Assembly (NCBI GenBank): GCA_033345195.1
Contig: JAWPOE010000004.1
Location: forward strand, 182,569-246,568
Length of the DNA stretch: 64,000 nt
From: Alphaproteobacteria bacterium
Lineage (GTDB): Bacteria; Pseudomonadota; Alphaproteobacteria; Rs-D84
Direction of reading: 5' to 3'
Shown here piece after piece: positions 17,949-63,990 of this stretch. Position 1 is the first letter of the stretch. Each line of letters opens with the position of its first letter. The position numbers and the translations under genes were made by a program. A model generated the notes under the pieces. It was not told the origin of the DNA. It ran no database searches and worked only from the letters and a program-made list of their open reading frames with translations.

Positions 17949-18323
17949 TTATAACAATTCCTTAATAAATTCATCTGGGATTCGCTTTGGACGCATGTCT
18001 GCCCCCAAATACGCAACCTTTAGGTTTATTATAGCACAAACATTCCCATCTTTCACGAACTTTTGTTCAATTTTTACCGTTGCCGCCCCAACATCTGTCA
18101 TAACTGTTTTTACAACGAAATCATCAGCCGCCTTTAATGGTTGTAAATACTTAATATTTAATTCACGAATAACAAATCCAACATCATCGCCAACCACAAC
18201 ATGACCACGCAACCAATTCATACGTGCGCGTTCCGCAATTTCCAGATATCGTGCATGATACACAATTCCTTCGGCATCCGTGTCCGCATACGCAACTGTA
18301 AATGGATAAACATGCGTTTTCAT
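17949..18323 (-). CDS. ybgC: YbgC/4-hydroxybenzoyl-CoA thioesterase-family acyl-CoA thioesterase
   Basis: FTVAYADTDAEGIVYHARYLEIAERARMNWLR hotdog-fold motif. Its position between ruvB and tolQ matches the conserved ybgC-tolQRA arrangement. Confidence 0.75.
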   Translation of the reverse strand: MKTHVYPFTVAYADTDAEGIVYHARYLEIAERARMNWLRGHVVVGDDVGFVIRELNIKYLQPLKAADDFVVKTVMTDVGAATVKIEQKFVKDGNVCAIINLKVAYLGADMRPKRIPDEFIKELL

Positions 18324-18329
18324 TTACGG

Positions 18330-18725
18330 CTATCTCTGCTTATCTGTGACAGTCATCATCTTCAAACGCAATTCTTCTGGAATGTGCTTTAAACGCAAAT
18401 CTGGCCCAATATATGCAACACGACTATTCAAAGTTGCGCAAACTATATTATCAGTATTCAAGAAATACTGTACTGTATCCAGGAACACATTGCCAACCTT
18501 TAACACTTCTGTTTCGACGCAAATATCTTCACCCAACTTTAATGGGAACGAATAATTTACGTTCAAATTTTTAATAATAAAATTATCACCTTTTGGAATT
18601 TCCTTGCCGCGCATCCAATTCATACGCGCACGCTCTGCAATCTCAATATAGCGTCCATGATACACAATCCCACCTGCATCAGTATCTGCATAGGCGATTG
18701 TAAAATTATACTTATGTCTTGCCAT
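18330..18725 (-). CDS. Second YbgC-family thioesterase (tandem paralogue)
   Basis: FTIAYADTDAGGIVYHGRYIEIAERARMNWMR, about 50% identical to the neighbouring paralogue. Confidence 0.75.
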   Translation of the reverse strand: MARHKYNFTIAYADTDAGGIVYHGRYIEIAERARMNWMRGKEIPKGDNFIIKNLNVNYSFPLKLGEDICVETEVLKVGNVFLDTVQYFLNTDNIVCATLNSRVAYIGPDLRLKHIPEELRLKMMTVTDKQR

Positions 18726-18746
18726 TGTTTACTTGTTTCCCTTTTT

Positions 18747-19736
18747 TTATTTTTCCAACCCCAGATGTGCATAACCCGCATCTGTTATTATTCGACCACG
18801 CGGTGTACGCTGCACAAACCCCAGTTGCATTAAATACGGTTCTATAACATCCTCTATCGTATCTGTTGGTTCAGATAGTGCCGCAGACAGATTTTCAATT
18901 CCAACAGGCCCCCCTGCATAGAACTTTATAATTGTATTCATATATTCACGATCGATTTCGTCCAACCCGCATTCATCAATATGTAATTGGAATAGGGTGG
19001 TCTTGATAATATCTGCGGTTATCTGATTTTTTGATAATGCTGCTGCAAAGTCACGCGCACGCTTTAACAAACGATTTGCGATACGTGGCGTTCCACGGGC
19101 AGATTTCGCCAACATCAACGCACCATCCGCATCGATGGGCGTACCCAATATGTTTGCGCTGCGCATAATGATTTTGGCTAAATCATCTGGCGAATAAAAC
19201 GTCAACCGCAAATCGATACCAAACCTATCACGCAATGGATTAGACAACAACCCCGTACGTGTGGTTGCCCCAACCAGCGTAAACGGGGGCAGGTCGATAC
19301 GCACACTTTTCGCACTTGGCCCTTCGCCCAACATGATATCCAGCTTAAAATCTTCCATTGCGGAATATAAAACTTCTTCAATTGCCGTCGGCAAACGATG
19401 AATTTCATCAATAAACAATACATCCATTGGCTCTAACGCTGTCAGAATTGCCGCCAAATCACCTTGCTTGGTCAACATTGGTGCCGCTGTTGCACGAAAA
19501 TTCGTCCCCAATTCATTCGCAACAATATGTGCCAACGTTGTTTTTCCCAAACCCGGGGGGCCATACAGCAGGACATGATCCATTGCCTCGCCCCTATTAC
19601 GCGCACCAGACACAAATACAGACAAATTCTGCTTTAAACTTTCATGCCCAATAAAGTCAGACAATGAACGTGGCCGAATGGACGCCACCATATCGTCTGG
19701 AATATTTGCATCTAAAAATCTTTCTTTATTCTGCAT
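18747..19736 (-). CDS. ruvB: Holliday junction branch-migration helicase RuvB
   Basis: [53 protein letters not shown]+ motifs; 329 aa. Confidence 0.95.
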
Positions 19737-58682: not shown

Positions 58683-59384
58683 TCAGAAAAAACGATGTAA
58701 TTCACCACCATGTTGCGCCAACCAGCGTTTTGCACGTTCCACCCCAAAACCATACAAATCGCGAACCTGGGCCCAAAATTCTGGCGAATGATCCATATGT
58801 TTTTTATGCGCTAATTCATGCATCACAACATAACGCATAACATCCAACGGCGCAAACGCCAATCGCCATGAAAAAGACATCGTTCCAGATGTCGAACAAC
58901 TGCCCCAGCGACTGGTAGTGTCACGAATTGCGATACGCGCCGGCCAAAATTCACGTGGCGTATTACGTATCATCTGTTTAACCTGACACAAAAATTCTGC
59001 CTTAATAAAGTCGCGCACACGCCGTTCAAACATCGAAATATCACCACCGATTATCAATGCTTCGCCATTTTCAGAATACTTGTTTGACCGAACAGATGCA
59101 TCGTGACGCAATACTATCTGCCGACCTAAAAATTCAATAACATCACCCGGTTTTAACTTTATTTTGGCCGGACATTTTTGAAATGTACACTCAAGCCATT
59201 TTTGTTTTGATTCCAAGAATTTTAATACATACGACGTCGAAACCAACCACGGCTTTGATATATGAATTTCACGTCTGGGGGTCATCTTGGGACGCAATGT
59301 AATATTTCGCAAACCGCGTCGCGTTGTAATTATAACCGGAATTTCTTCACCCGACGACAAAGTAAAAACATAATCAGTCGCCAT
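58683..59384 (-). CDS. YgjP/M48-like zinc metallopeptidase (DUF45, HExxH)
   Basis: C-terminal VMHELAHKKHMDHSPEFW motif; 233 aa. Confidence 0.7.
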   Translation of the reverse strand: MATDYVFTLSSGEEIPVIITTRRGLRNITLRPKMTPRREIHISKPWLVSTSYVLKFLESKQKWLECTFQKCPAKIKLKPGDVIEFLGRQIVLRHDASVRSNKYSENGEALIIGGDISMFERRVRDFIKAEFLCQVKQMIRNTPREFWPARIAIRDTTSRWGSCSTSGTMSFSWRLAFAPLDVMRYVVMHELAHKKHMDHSPEFWAQVRDLYGFGVERAKRWLAQHGGELHRFF

Positions 59385-60030
59385 CTTCTACCTTTTCTAT
59401 TTCCTCTTTTAACAACTTACCAACTTCTTCAAACAAAACATTATCAAATTCATTTGCCTGTTCTATCGCATAATCCAACAACTCTATTTTTTCTGCTTTG
59501 CTTTTTTTACTTTGTGCCAGCTGCGAAAAAAGACATATATAAAAATCCTGATACTTCTTTTTTATTGCCTCTACTTCAAATAAATATCGGAACGCCCACC
59601 GGGAATCATATTCTATACCACACTCTAAATCTATCAAACAAAGTTTAACGAATTTTCGCTTTGCCTCATAAACAGGATGTCCTGTATTTTCAGGGTTTTC
59701 CGTTGCACACAACGTACTGTACCAACCCGCCAGCCAATAATCCCACTCACTACGCGAAAAATCGACTTTACCCGTTTGTAACAACGTCTGCAAAATCTTT
59801 ACCTGCTCTTCATTTCCCCAATCAGAATTTAATCTACGTTCAAAATCCTGGGTAATAATAAACGACGGAATATTGTCACCATAATACCCCAACGCAAAAT
59901 CAACCTGACGCCATGTAATTGCATTTTTTAGTTCTTCTTTTATTGTTTGTTTTTTTGATTCAACGCCACATACACAGACAGGTACAAACGCCATCAACAC
60001 ACAAAACAAAAAACGATTGAACCAAATCAT
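59374..60030 (-). CDS. Secreted hypothetical protein (218 aa)
   Basis: Signal peptide MIWFNRFLFCVLMAFVPVCVCG; Trp/Tyr-rich; no recognisable motif. Confidence 0.45.
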   Translation of the reverse strand: MIWFNRFLFCVLMAFVPVCVCGVESKKQTIKEELKNAITWRQVDFALGYYGDNIPSFIITQDFERRLNSDWGNEEQVKILQTLLQTGKVDFSRSEWDYWLAGWYSTLCATENPENTGHPVYEAKRKFVKLCLIDLECGIEYDSRWAFRYLFEVEAIKKKYQDFYICLFSQLAQSKKSKAEKIELLDYAIEQANEFDNVLFEEVGKLLKEEIEKVEDGD

Positions 60031-62285: not shown

Positions 62286-63776
62286 CTATTTCCACCTATC
62301 TGGAATACTGTCCCAATCGTCTAACCCCTCGCAACCAGAATACGTACCATAATATGCGTCGGCCGGCCAAATTTCATACAGATACTGTCCATTTATCCGT
62401 GCCGACGGCCCAGTCAGATTTCCAGACCAAGCAAAAGTGCTTTGAAACATAAAATCGGCGGCGGGTGCGGTTGTATCCAAACCCGCGAACAGATTTTCGG
62501 GTATTGATGTCAGCCCAGTGGATTGGAAAGTGCCATAAAACATCATTTCTGCTGGTGGGCCTTGAATCCCCGCAAATAAATCTTCGGGTATTGATGTCAG
62601 CCAAGTGGATTGGAAAGTGCCATAAAACATCATTTCTGCTGGTGGGCCCTGAATCCCGGCAAATAAATTTTCCGGGATTGCCGTCAGCCCCATGCAGCCA
62701 CTAAAAGTATTCTCAAACATCCCTTCTGCTGGTGGTCCTTGAATCCCTGCAAATAAATCTTCGGGGATTGATTCTATCGACAATTCAGTAAAAGTGTGCG
62801 CAAACATATTTTTTGCTGGCGGCCCTTGAATACCCGCAAACAGATTTTCGGGAATTGATTCTATAAACGTGGCTGAAAAAGTGCCATCAAACATCCCTTC
62901 TGCCGGTGGTCCTTGAATCCCAGAAAATAAATCCGACGGTATGGCTGTTATATAGGCAAAGTTGAAAGTTTGTTTAAACATATTTTCCACGGGGGCGCCG
63001 TGAATCCCTGAAAACAATCCCGATGGGATATCAATATTCAAATCATATGCGTCTGCAAATGTACCAATAAATCTGGGTTGTGAACCGTCTTCTAGTGTTG
63101 GAAATATACACCCCAAACATCCATCAATATCCGTTATCCCAAGGGGGCATTTACCACCAAAACTCCACTCATCCAGACACGCAAAAGAGGTCCCCAATAT
63201 CACGGTGGATAAATCTGGGTCATCGGAATATTTTGTGGCTTGGCCCCCGATGCGTACAGTATAAATGCCATCACTGGCATACTCATGCCCAAACCATTGT
63301 TCACCAACTGTATTTTTTTCAATGACCTCCTTGGTACCGTCACCCCAATTGATATTGTATGTACCCGCCGCCGAAATCATTATTAAATGGTTGGGGTCAC
63401 GTATGTCGCCACTATAACCCTCGCGGTGATAATAATGCGTTAACTTTAATTTATAATCAGTACTATTACCTTTTACAATCAACCCATCCACCGCCGTGTC
63501 TGTGGCAATTGTATCTGCGGCGACGGTGGTCGCAAATTCCCCATTGCCATAGTCTGTCGTCTTTTCCCCGTTTAGCATTTCATTCGCAACATCAACCGCC
63601 GTCAACAGGTATTTCATATTCGCCGCAACACGTGGATTGGTCAGTTCACTATTATATGGTATGGTTATGTCCCATTTCTGGGCAATTGCATTATGTACAT
63701 ATTCAACATTTACAATCTGGGCGGAATGTGCAACACCACAAAACAAGAAAAATAAAAACACAAATAATCGTTTCAT
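62286..63776 (-). CDS. Secreted protein with seven tandem 29-aa repeats (IPxxLFAGIQGPPAExMFxxTFxxxxLTS)
   Basis: Signal peptide MKRLFVFLFFLFCGVAHS. The protein repeats are seen directly, and two adjacent 87-bp DNA units at 62484-62570 and 62571-62657 are about 95% identical. Confidence 0.6.
   Translation of the reverse strand: MKRLFVFLFFLFCGVAHSAQIVNVEYVHNAIAQKWDITIPYNSELTNPRVAANMKYLLTAVDVANEMLNGEKTTDYGNGEFATTVAADTIATDTAVDGLIVKGNSTDYKLKLTHYYHREGYSGDIRDPNHLIMISAAGTYNINWGDGTKEVIEKNTVGEQWFGHEYASDGIYTVRIGGQATKYSDDPDLSTVILGTSFACLDEWSFGGKCPLGITDIDGCLGCIFPTLEDGSQPRFIGTFADAYDLNIDIPSGLFSGIHGAPVENMFKQTFNFAYITAIPSDLFSGIQGPPAEGMFDGTFSATFIESIPENLFAGIQGPPAKNMFAHTFTELSIESIPEDLFAGIQGPPAEGMFENTFSGCMGLTAIPENLFAGIQGPPAEMMFYGTFQSTWLTSIPEDLFAGIQGPPAEMMFYGTFQSTGLTSIPENLFAGLDTTAPAADFMFQSTFAWSGNLTGPSARINGQYLYEIWPADAYYGTYSGCEGLDDWDSIPDRWK
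62400..62950. repeat. Intragenic tandem 87-bp repeat array
   Basis: CGGGTATTGATGTCAGCC(C/A)AGTGGATTGGAAAGTGCCATAAAACATCATTTCTGCTGGTGGGCC(T/C)TGAATCCC.. is repeated, with more diverged units on both flanks. Confidence 0.8.
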
Positions 63777-63789
63777 GACGGCGGGCTCC

Positions 63790-63990
63790 TTATTCTGCGG
63801 TTGGTAGTGGTGGCGTGGGTACCACAAACGTGCCAGATACAGTATACGAACCCGCCATGGTTTGGTTGGCGGTGGATGATGTATCAACCTTGGTCGTAGT
63901 TGCTGTGTTAACGTATGCTGTCGACGCAATATCAGCACGTGTCACAACCGGCACAAACAACGAACAAAAGAAAACTAACAAAATTCTCAT
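63790..63990 (-). CDS. Small secreted Thr/Ser-rich hypothetical protein (66 aa)
   Basis: Signal peptide MRILLVFFCSLFVPVVTRA. It is short and could be spurious. Confidence 0.3.
   Translation of the reverse strand: MRILLVFFCSLFVPVVTRADIASTAYVNTATTTKVDTSSTANQTMAGSYTVSGTFVVPTPPLPTAE

Follow-up and report, generated by a model that had tools for sequence, protein, structure and literature searches.

A predicted secreted LRR protein of variable repeat number from a large paralogous family of gut Alphaproteobacteria (Candidatus Enterousia, order Rs-D84)

Bacterial LRR proteins that bind ligands at the cell surface are represented by several known groups. The internalins of Listeria form a multigene family in which the LRR binds the host receptor and is followed by an Ig-like inter-repeat domain, while the TpLRR repeats of BspA-type proteins have a period of about 23 residues. 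BspA and LrrA are surface adhesins binding fibronectin and fibrinogen (PMC2843621), and the PARCEL group is made up of variable surface lipoproteins (Roske et al. 2010, PMC2996958). The organisms considered here, Candidatus Enterousia (order Rs-D84), are widespread uncultured gut Alphaproteobacteria with genomes of about 0.75-1.0 Mb, devoid of the TCA cycle, the respiratory chain and standard nutrient transporters (PMC12306168), and therefore probably depend on the host or on other microbes; the same paper on Enterousia contains no adhesion, surface, repeat or secretion terms.

Analysis of a 64-kb window (the whole stretch of DNA analysed, 64,000 nucleotides) focused on a gene of 496 codons whose product is probably a modular ligand-binding protein, exported by the Sec route and belonging to the BspA/PARCEL (DUF285/TIGR02167) branch within the LRR superfamily. 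The gene, its upstream partner and the predicted protein segments are arranged as follows:

63790..63990, minus strand: upstream partner gene, encoding a secreted protein of 66 aa, which when mature has about 45 aa, ADIASTAYV…KVDTSSTANQTMAGSYTVSGTFVVPTPPLPTAE
63786..63789, minus strand: Shine-Dalgarno GGAG, 9 nt before the ATG of the LRR gene and directly after the TAA of the partner gene
62286..63776, minus strand: whole CDS of the LRR protein, from ATG 63776 to the stop at 62286-62288; 496 aa plus stop
63723..63776, minus strand: Sec-type signal peptide, aa 1-18, MKRLFVFLFFLFCGVAHS, then AQ; read from the sequence by eye
63462..63722, minus strand: N-terminal module, aa 19-105, with three short strand-plus-helix elements VNVEYVHNAIAQ, ANMKYLLTAVDVANEML and FATTVAADTIATDTAVDGLI
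63141..63461, minus strand: Ig/PKD-like beta-sandwich, aa 106-212, with a WGDG motif; beta strands at 110-194 in the AlphaFold2 model
63030..63140, minus strand: LRR N-cap and degenerate unit 0, aa 213-249, …CIFPTLEDGSQPRFIGTFADAYDLNID; pLDDT above 90 from about aa 220
62418..63029, minus strand: LRR array of seven tandem units of 29/30 aa (87/90 bp), aa 250-453
62505..62678, minus strand: units 5 and 6, a recent tandem duplicate with 93% DNA identity, one of them without counterpart in strain L084
62289..62417, minus strand: C-terminal cap, aa 454-496, LTGPSARINGQYLYEIWP…YSGCEGLDDWDSIPDRWK

Close homologs start at the same Met as ATG 63776, and a longer mechanical open reading frame from GTG 63938 was rejected, as it overlaps the upstream gene in another frame. 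Searches of the window for tRNA and Rfam features found none, promoter and terminator scans remained at chance level, and no paralogs of the gene were present elsewhere in the window.

The deduced protein comprises, in order, a signal peptide, an N-terminal helical module, an Ig/PKD-like domain, the LRR array and a C-terminal cap. Structure prediction, proposed by an earlier sequence-only reading of this DNA, returned an LRR solenoid (AlphaFold2, pLDDT 87.6 for the whole protein and 94-98 over the repeats). The signal peptide, judged by eye, shows a KR n-region, a hydrophobic core and A-H-S at positions -3 to -1; the mature N-terminus that follows, A[QE]xxNVEY[IV]H, is conserved among family members, with the NVEY[IV] motif inside the first 80 aa in 89 of 120. 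The N-terminal module, with helices at 24-35, 54-69 and 89-98 in the AlphaFold2 model, found no match in the Pfam scan and is specific to this Enterousia protein family: aa 1-215 were matched by 470 representative proteins (E <= 0.001), and most of the listed matches begin at their own N-terminus. An Ig/PKD-like fold is likely for aa 106-212 on the basis of the model. The query scored 10-11 bits against the PKD domain profiles PF00801 and PF18911, below both gathering thresholds (23.5 and 27 bits), sub-threshold PKD/PKD_4 matches occurred in 30-31 of 50 family members, and NF058578 PamR matched aa 140-177 weakly. Proteins several thousand residues long contain up to 31 copies of the Ig/PKD-like segment. 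At the other end of the protein, a terminal IPxxW[KRG] is found in 106 of 120 family members.

The query is one of a very large family of paralogs found in gut Alphaproteobacteria with reduced genomes. Its homologs number over 1000 uncharacterised proteins in Candidatus Enterousia (order Rs-D84), and 354 family loci were confirmed in GTDB genomes; among the best 80 of these 354 loci, all named records are Ca. Enterousia, Alphaproteobacteria or Proteobacteria MAG. At least 11 paralogs occur in a single genome, MAG JAAVBP01, which accounts for 11 of the best 80 loci. The partner gene, whose stop lies 13 nt before the ATG of the LRR gene, is matched by a homolog in the position immediately upstream at 34 or more of 67 family loci in a motif scan, and at about 40 with added variants. 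Its product is 100% identical to NCBI MDW2958674.1 and has no relative in Pfam, PHROG or PDB; its AlphaFold2 monomer is of low confidence (pLDDT 64.8), and hhalign of the partner protein with the family N-terminus gave a probability of only 80%, for which the signal peptide and the YV motif were responsible.

The most likely function, by analogy with BspA/LrrA and PARCEL proteins, is adhesin-type ligand binding at the cell surface, with a binding surface that would vary by gain and loss of units and by hypervariable substitutions. Of the secreted or surface-exposed location suggested by the sequence-only reading, secretion agrees with the typical Sec signal peptide seen by eye, and exposure at the surface is what we infer. 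If it reaches the surface, the protein could serve as an adhesin or receptor-binding protein for ligands of the host or of partner cells; the binding surface and its antigenicity would be varied or tuned by unequal recombination or slippage among 87-bp units of similar sequence and by diversification of paralogs, and the small secreted protein, if co-transcribed, may aid anchoring or assembly of the LRR protein. The secreted LRR family, expanded, diversifying and of changeable repeat number, is the most obvious candidate for attachment of Enterousia to what they depend on. No Pfam model covers the family, and a dedicated HMM would annotate more than 1000 "hypothetical" proteins, while the LRR gene locus offers a convenient strain marker. 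The practical consequences are modest. Variable LRR surface proteins are already a well-known theme in biology, and the difference in repeat number is real but ordinary for such proteins.

In diderm bacteria, a Sec signal alone takes a protein only to the periplasm, and the LRR protein showed neither an outer-membrane anchor nor a lipobox, an autotransporter domain or a signal for a secretion system. The exported product might thus stay periplasmic or be released in soluble form and play a non-adhesive role, as a scaffold, nutrient-capture binder or decoy, with neutral repeat variation; a Sec signal peptide accompanied by no identified outer-membrane targeting feature would fit such a protein, and LRR domains serve many binding roles. 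This alternative is nevertheless unlikely, because variation is focused on hypervariable repeat positions, because the expansion of paralogs in a genome of ~1 Mb and the homology to phage receptor-binding tips both fit an exposed, diversifying recognition surface better, and because the name of TIGR02167 and the PARCEL study (PMC2996958) both present curated relatives as surface proteins. A bolder extension of the surface-adhesin reading is also rather improbable, namely that the two-gene cassette, consisting of the ~45-residue secreted "PTPPLP" protein and then the N-module/PKD/LRR protein, in at least 11 copies per ~1 Mb genome, constitutes an undescribed surface-fibre or adhesin system of Rs-D84 whose recognition tip is evolutionarily shared with the receptor-binding modules of phage tails. 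If so, the small protein would serve for anchoring or as a partner in assembly, and these metabolically dependent bacteria would attach to the host surface or to partner microbes by means of the variable LRR tips.

Sequence comparison demonstrated homology of the repeat and cap region to the distal modules of phage tail proteins. The region matched phrog_9915 (E 3e-16), and tblastn found matching tail-protein C-termini in 43 phage records (best E 3e-8), including gp35, "tail protein I", of Klebsiella phage ST16-OXA48phi5.4 (NC_049450; 92% of the 280-aa query, E 4e-6, closest relatives 3e-8) and gp231 of Escherichia phage ukendt (Phapecoctavirus; NC_052661; 59% of the query, E 4e-4). The gp35 protein itself passes LRR_5 (41.3), DUF285 (32.3) and TIGR02167 (53). 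The C-terminal cap is common to the ends of the phage tail proteins, …CTKLSDYNNIPSGYK at the stop and …CAGLDDYDDLPGNW…, with the same terminal GCxGLxDYxxIPxxW as in the query, and in both groups an Ig-like domain precedes the LRR (Big_2 in phages). Foldseek against BFVD retrieved, as best structural matches, phage proteins named LRR, PKD, "LRR 5", "26-residue repeat" and BspA-family, with E down to 5e-14, and a long variant of the partner protein weakly matches a tail-fiber PHROG (E 0.003). All of this would suit a phage-derived receptor-binding protein still active in a phage, prophage or tailocin particle rather than at the surface of the cell. Such a role is, however, very unlikely. The query has a predicted Sec signal peptide, whereas gp35 has none and starts with Tail_P2_I at aa 10-150, and phage tail proteins in general are not known to carry one; the phage proteins compared here have N-terminal baseplate or tail-attachment domains (Tail_P2_I, RCC1-like), and the Pfam scan found no baseplate-attachment domain such as Tail_P2_I in the query. 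Moreover, the gene is chromosomal, with RNase H, transketolase, a YgjP-like gene, HisRS and RF1 as neighbours, this housekeeping gene order is kept in a related species (L085), and the paralogs of L002 are likewise scattered amid housekeeping genes.

The repeat array of this putative cellular surface protein consists of units that open with IPxxLFxG at aa 250, 279, 308, 337, 367, 396 and 425, spaced by 29, 29, 29, 30, 29 and 29 residues, and is flanked by degenerate half-units (N-cap, aa 213-249; C-cap, aa 454-496). The coordinates 62286-63776 given by the sequence-only reading proved exact, and its seven tandem units were borne out by counting of unit starts; Tandem Repeats Finder, independently of the motif reading, reported a period of 87 with 5.2 copies over 62482-62933 (75% matches, score 373). 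A GIQGPPAE motif invariant in all seven units was found only in part: units 2-6 carry GIQGPPA[EK]xMFxxTF, whereas unit 1 (GIHGAPVE) and unit 7 (GLDTTAPAADFMF) deviate from the full motif. In the same way, near-identity of the 87-bp DNA units, put at about 95% for an adjacent pair, applies to units 5 (62592-62678) and 6 (62505-62591), identical at 81 of 87 positions (93%), and not to the other unit pairs, all of which share 62-78% DNA identity. The unit consensus of the family is IPxxLFAGIxGAPAxxMFxxTFxx(C)xxLTS; in 120 homologs the units measure 29 (407 units), 30 (197) or 31 (175) residues. Within the 29-residue class, entropy is at most 0.3 bits at P2, L5, F6, G11, M17, F18, T21 and F22, and reaches 2.8-3.4 bits at positions 15, 16, 19, 20, 23, 24 and 26.

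Unit number changes between strains via gain or loss of whole in-frame units, which bears out the recent expansion and copy-number variation anticipated from the sequence alone. Strain L084 (95% DNA identity) shows an exact in-frame gap of 87 bp, one unit, at the 5/6 duplicate; orthologs have 5, 6, 7, 8 and 9 units, and regex counts across more than 100 family members, which are underestimates, range from 5 to 14. Substitutions concentrate in the LRR and at the hypervariable repeat positions of the family: when the window is aligned with L084, DNA identity falls from 97% in the N-terminal half to 93% in the LRR and 91% in the C-cap, the 13-nt spacer between the partner and LRR genes is 100% conserved, and 12 of the 19 nonsynonymous changes in the repeats fall at the 7 hypervariable positions (binomial p = 3e-4). 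It could be argued that the array or its unit number is an artefact of collapsed or expanded repeats, or that the gene is decaying, since the sequence derives from metagenome assemblies and identical stretches of 45-66 nt between units are enough to confuse short-read assemblers. Loci L090 and L091 illustrate the point, which, at 100% identity elsewhere, are set apart by an indel of 177 bp between units with a 22-aa stretch (about 66 nt) in common; this copy-number contrast may reflect assembly collapse, L091 being a collapsed version of L090. Yet the reading frame is intact in all versions, the 6 differences between units 5 and 6 are not something an assembler invents, identical 7-unit genes come from independent assemblies (L090 = L092), P0007, with 6 units, is present on 4 contigs, three of which are from three samples, and unit number varies over more than 100 family members, all of which makes an artefact or decay highly improbable, even more so than a role in phage particles.

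The predicted fold of the repeat array is that of an LRR protein: the model winds tandem units of 20-30 residues into a solenoid that superposes on solved LRR structures. The family profile weakly matched Toll/VLR and designed LRR chains among PDB sequences (E 7e-4 to 2e-3), with the LTSIPxxLF segment aligned with the LTSLPxGVF of typical LRRs, and phmmer of the query against PDB sequences gave no matches. HMM searches, also proposed by the sequence-only reading, placed the query below all curated models, while paralogs pass TIGR02167. For LRR_5 (PF13306, gathering 27.7 bits), the query had no match at E <= 10, 7 of 50 family members matched at E <= 1, and all Enterousia proteins tested stayed below 27.7 (best P0017 and P0089, 26.4 and 25.9 bits, respectively); for DUF285 (PF03382, gathering 25 bits), neither the query nor any of 50 family members matched. 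TIGR02167 (curated cut-off 30 bits) had no match in the query or its closest orthologs P0001, P0002 and P0007, and matched 38 of 50 family members at E <= 1, with the paralogs P0017, P0110 and P0053 passing the cut-off at 62.1, 47.1 and 35.6 bits, respectively; the best-scoring stretches are limited to positions 1-12 of the 26 in the model, a portion that by eye matches the MFxxTFxGCxxL half of the unit. As judged by sequence comparison, the family qualifies for TIGR02167 by homology, whereas the query protein's own score is too low. An idealised consensus of 8 units, scanned against Pfam, produced spurious matches only, and LemA matches in homologs, located inside the LRR, are likewise spurious.

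Homology to PARCEL/BspA-type repeats is nonetheless established, so that the weak DUF285/BspA likeness noted earlier was correct and reflects real remote homology, through TIGR02167 matches in the family and the phage bridge proteins. The idea of an entirely new repeat family, with no relation to LRR, DUF285 or BspA repeats, would agree with a query repeat region matching nothing in Pfam or NCBIfam and with Foldseek finding nothing significant in PDB, and is refuted by gp35, which passes LRR_5 and DUF285, and by the paralogs above the TIGR02167 cut-off, which leave it next to no probability. Novelty in the sense of the sequence-only reading is confined to the subfamily level (period 29-31, outside every Pfam model) and does not extend to fold or superfamily. 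Most likely, the protein adds a new and divergent member to the BspA/PARCEL kind of LRR protein already known.

Compared with the PARCEL/DUF285/TIGR02167 "26-residue repeat" proteins, such as LppQ and LppC of Mycoplasma mycoides (PMC2996958), the query family has in common variable-number tandem arrays, conserved hydrophobic and hypervariable hydrophilic positions, a predicted export signal and a reduced-genome organism. Dyad symmetry in the repeat-coding DNA would be a further likeness and is weak in the query: a 28-nt imperfect palindrome, AATCCCnG…CnGGGATT, lies at each IPxxLFxGI (mean 7.8 of 14 pairs), and synonymous recoding gives nearly equal symmetry (41 observed vs 35.3 +/- 3.3, p about 0.055), so that it mostly follows from the peptide sequence and was not retained as an independent DNA-level feature. 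The query family differs in its unit of 29-31 residues instead of 25-26, outside the canonical length of about 25, in a Sec signal peptide where PARCEL proteins have a lipoprotein signal, and in the N-terminal module, PKD-like domain and conserved C-cap, which fall outside the PARCEL definition. With the BspA-type (TpLRR, LRR_5) proteins, namely BspA of Tannerella forsythia, LrrA of Treponema denticola and the TvBspA family of Trichomonas vaginalis (PMC2843621), it shares an LRR solenoid on a surface or secreted protein, large paralogous families in host-associated microbes and repeat numbers that differ among paralogs and isolates; the period is 29-31 in the query family and about 23 in TpLRR, and adhesion data exist for BspA and LrrA, whereas the Enterousia family is known from sequence and models. 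Finally, like the Listeria internalins, the query is a secreted bacterial LRR protein with an Ig-like domain from a multigene family, although its Ig-like domain stands before the LRR, in reverse order, its LRR is of another subtype, it carries no LPXTG or GW anchoring module, and no sequence relation was detected between the two.

The gene for the leucine-rich-repeat (LRR) protein runs on the minus strand from an ATG at window position 63776 to a stop codon at 62286-62288 (496 codons), and the interval 62286-63776 proposed by the sequence-only reading is exact. A GGAG is located 9 nt 5' of this ATG, whose methionine is also the start of the closest homologs. The longest mechanical open reading frame (ORF; GTG 63938, 550 aa) was rejected as the gene; it overlaps the upstream gene in a different frame. 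Two short plus-strand ORFs overlapping the LRR gene (62465-62704 and 63080-63325) were discarded as by-products of the repeat and weak dyad symmetry, as was the weakly self-similar plus-strand translation of 62428-63030 (tblastn E 0.52). Read by eye, the N-terminus is a typical Sec signal peptide (MKRLFVFLFFLFCGVAHS/AQ). The product is exported and modular, its LRR solenoid is of the BspA/PARCEL kind, and its parts are as follows:

aa 1-18, signal peptide
aa 19-105, family-specific module of three strand-plus-helix elements
aa 106-212, Ig/PKD-like beta-sandwich carrying a WGDG motif
aa 213-249, LRR N-cap
aa 250-453, seven LRR units
aa 454-496, C-terminal cap

The protein falls below every Pfam and NCBIfam threshold; weak matches to PKD and PamR at aa 139-177 are the sole domain hints in these scans. 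At E <= 0.001, 470 representative proteins match its N-terminal 215 residues, most of the listed matches beginning at their own N-terminus, and the PKD-like segment recurs many times within proteins several thousand residues long.

Each of the seven tandem units, the number first counted, is opened by IPxxLFxG (aa 250, 279, 308, 337, 367, 396 and 425; spacing 29, 29, 29, 30, 29 and 29 aa), and Tandem Repeats Finder independently detects the repeat at 62482-62933 (period 87, 5.2 copies, score 373). The motif had been called invariant, which was overstated for all seven: GIQGPPA[EK]xMFxxTF is complete in units 2-6, to the exclusion of units 1 and 7. Similarly, the near-identity ascribed to the 87-bp units holds for units 5 and 6 (81/87, 93% DNA identity) but for no other pair (62-78%). 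A 28-nt imperfect palindrome is found in the coding DNA at every IPxxLFxGI, with a p of about 0.055 against synonymous recoding.

Within the 50 family members scanned, 38 matched NCBIfam TIGR02167.2 ("PARCEL repeat-containing surface protein"), with the homologs P0017 (62.1 bits), P0110 (47.1) and P0053 (35.6) above the 30-bit cut-off; this model matched neither the query nor its closest orthologs. Two members scored slightly under the 27.7-bit cut-off of Pfam LRR_5 (BspA type), at 26.4 and 25.9 bits, and none of the 50 matched DUF285. The query is also homologous to phage receptor-binding tips: it matched phrog_9915 (E 3e-16) and, in tblastn, tail proteins from 43 phage records at their C-terminal ends, including:

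L088 694-3720, Klebsiella phage ST16-OXA48phi5.4 gp35, "tail protein I", 1008 aa
L089 880-3552, Escherichia phage ukendt (Phapecoctavirus) gp231, 890 aa

These two proteins carry the same repeat as the Enterousia family (…FSGCTSLTAIPEGLFSD…) and the same terminal cap (…CTKLSDYNNIPSGYK in phage, …SGCEGLDDWDSIPDRWK in the window, both ending at the stop), with the consensus GCxGLxDYxxIPxxW in the phage proteins and the family. The gp35 protein passes LRR_5 (41.3 bits), DUF285 (32.3) and TIGR02167 (53), and Foldseek against BFVD, with E down to 5e-14, retrieved phage proteins labelled "BspA family", "bacterial surface protein 26-residue repeat", "Leucine rich repeat 5", LRR and PKD-domain. Because of the TIGR02167 and near-cut-off LRR_5 matches within the family and this independent phage bridge, the weak DUF285/BspA resemblance initially suspected turns out to be real remote homology. 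Sequence links put the query repeat in the BspA/PARCEL branch of LRR, its lineage being a divergent subfamily whose unit of 29-31 residues escapes the curated models, and the similarity to tail proteins suggests that phages and cellular surface proteins have exchanged a receptor-binding tip.

Whole units are gained and lost between strains. L084, a contig from another sample, is 95% identical to the window in DNA over 1.7 kb, with a gap of one exact in-frame 87-bp unit at the unit 5/6 duplicate (6 units vs 7); this gap and the differing unit numbers of orthologs support the predicted copy-number variation.

Repeat units in orthologs sharing 85-97% DNA identity over their N-terminal halves
L084, P0007: 6 units
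window, L090 (= L092): 7 units
L093: 8 units
P0002: 9 units

Contig L091 is 100% identical to L090 over 4.4 kb save one in-frame 177-bp two-unit deletion in the LRR gene (L091 3050-4363, L090 3059-4549), placed between units with an identical 22-aa stretch; either recombination produced a true allele or one assembler collapsed the repeat, the two contigs may be one sample assembled twice, and the contrast was counted as unconfirmed copy-number evidence. Compared with L084, the window is 97% identical in DNA across the small upstream gene and the N-terminal half, but 93% across the LRR and 91% across the C-cap. Substitutions are concentrated on the family-hypervariable repeat positions (15, 16, 19, 20, 23, 24 and 26), where 12 of the 19 nonsynonymous repeat changes fall (binomial p = 3e-4).

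Directly upstream lies a small partner gene:

63790-63990, minus strand, 66-aa ORF with a signal peptide, ending 13 nt before the LRR gene

Its product (…ANQTMAGSYTVSGTFVVPTPPLPTAE) is 100% identical to NCBI MDW2958674.1, and the conserved mature sequence comprises about 45 residues (ADIASxxYV…KVDTSxxANQTMAGSYTVSGTLVVPTPPLPxAE). A motif scan of 67 family loci placed a homolog immediately 5' of the LRR gene in at least 34, rising to about 40 with variant sequences added. The partner has no relative in Pfam, PHROG or PDB, its monomer model is of low confidence, and it is a putative anchor, chaperone or co-fibre. In L051, from the metagenome-assembled genome (MAG) JAAVBP01, two family members stand in tandem (1896-3779 and 4001-5545), the second without the small gene, so not all paralogs own a partner. 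Separately, L002 encodes (17963-19330, minus strand) a 455-aa secreted protein with a non-LRR body, whose mature N-terminus (ASIVSSGFLDEKL…) resembles the partner's [IL][AP]SxxY[VM] start; this motif may be common to several classes of exported protein among these bacteria.

Homologs number more than 1000, and almost all of them are metagenome proteins without a name or entries titled "hypothetical protein [Alphaproteobacteria bacterium]". In GTDB representative genomes 354 loci were confirmed; among the best 80 of these, all named records are MAGs of Candidatus Enterousia, Alphaproteobacteria or Proteobacteria, mostly sampled from the gut of animals or humans, and JAAVBP01 alone holds 11, a large expansion of paralogs within a reduced genome. 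Enterousia (order Rs-D84) has genomes of about 0.75-1.0 Mb, with neither a TCA cycle nor respiration nor the standard transporters (PMC12306168); adhesion, surface, repeat and secretion terms are absent from that paper.

The protein would be displayed on the cell surface and bind host or partner-cell ligands, while unequal recombination or slippage between similar 87-bp units, together with paralog diversification, would vary its specificity or antigenicity. Neither an anchor nor a route across the outer membrane was found for the query protein, and a periplasmic or soluble role therefore stays a real rival, albeit a considerably less probable one. That the query is a functioning phage or tailocin protein, as its tail-tip homology might imply, is improbable: it is surrounded by housekeeping genes (RNase H, transketolase, a YgjP-like gene, HisRS and RF1), whose order is kept in L085 around the ortholog P0007, and the gene is therefore chromosomal and outside any prophage. 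Between the transketolase and YgjP-like genes, the window also contains a 218-aa ORF (59374-60030, minus strand) with a signal-peptide-like N-terminus, missing from the otherwise syntenic L085 and with no Pfam match above threshold. An assembly artefact as the source of the array itself is also improbable.

Overall, the feature is real and was correctly read, and the query is a divergent variable-number LRR protein of BspA/PARCEL type, probably displayed at the surface, from a large uncharacterised Enterousia family; the conserved two-gene cassette and the phage tail-tip link are the most worthwhile aspects of the locus. Precedents for the proposed surface role are the BspA and LrrA adhesins (PMC2843621) and the mycoplasma PARCEL lipoproteins (PMC2996958). 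With the latter, the query family shares a variable-number array and a conserved-hydrophobic/variable-hydrophilic pattern, whereas its unit has 29-31 residues instead of the 25-residue PARCEL period, and the DNA dyad symmetry typical of PARCEL is weak in the query and largely accounted for by the peptide sequence itself.
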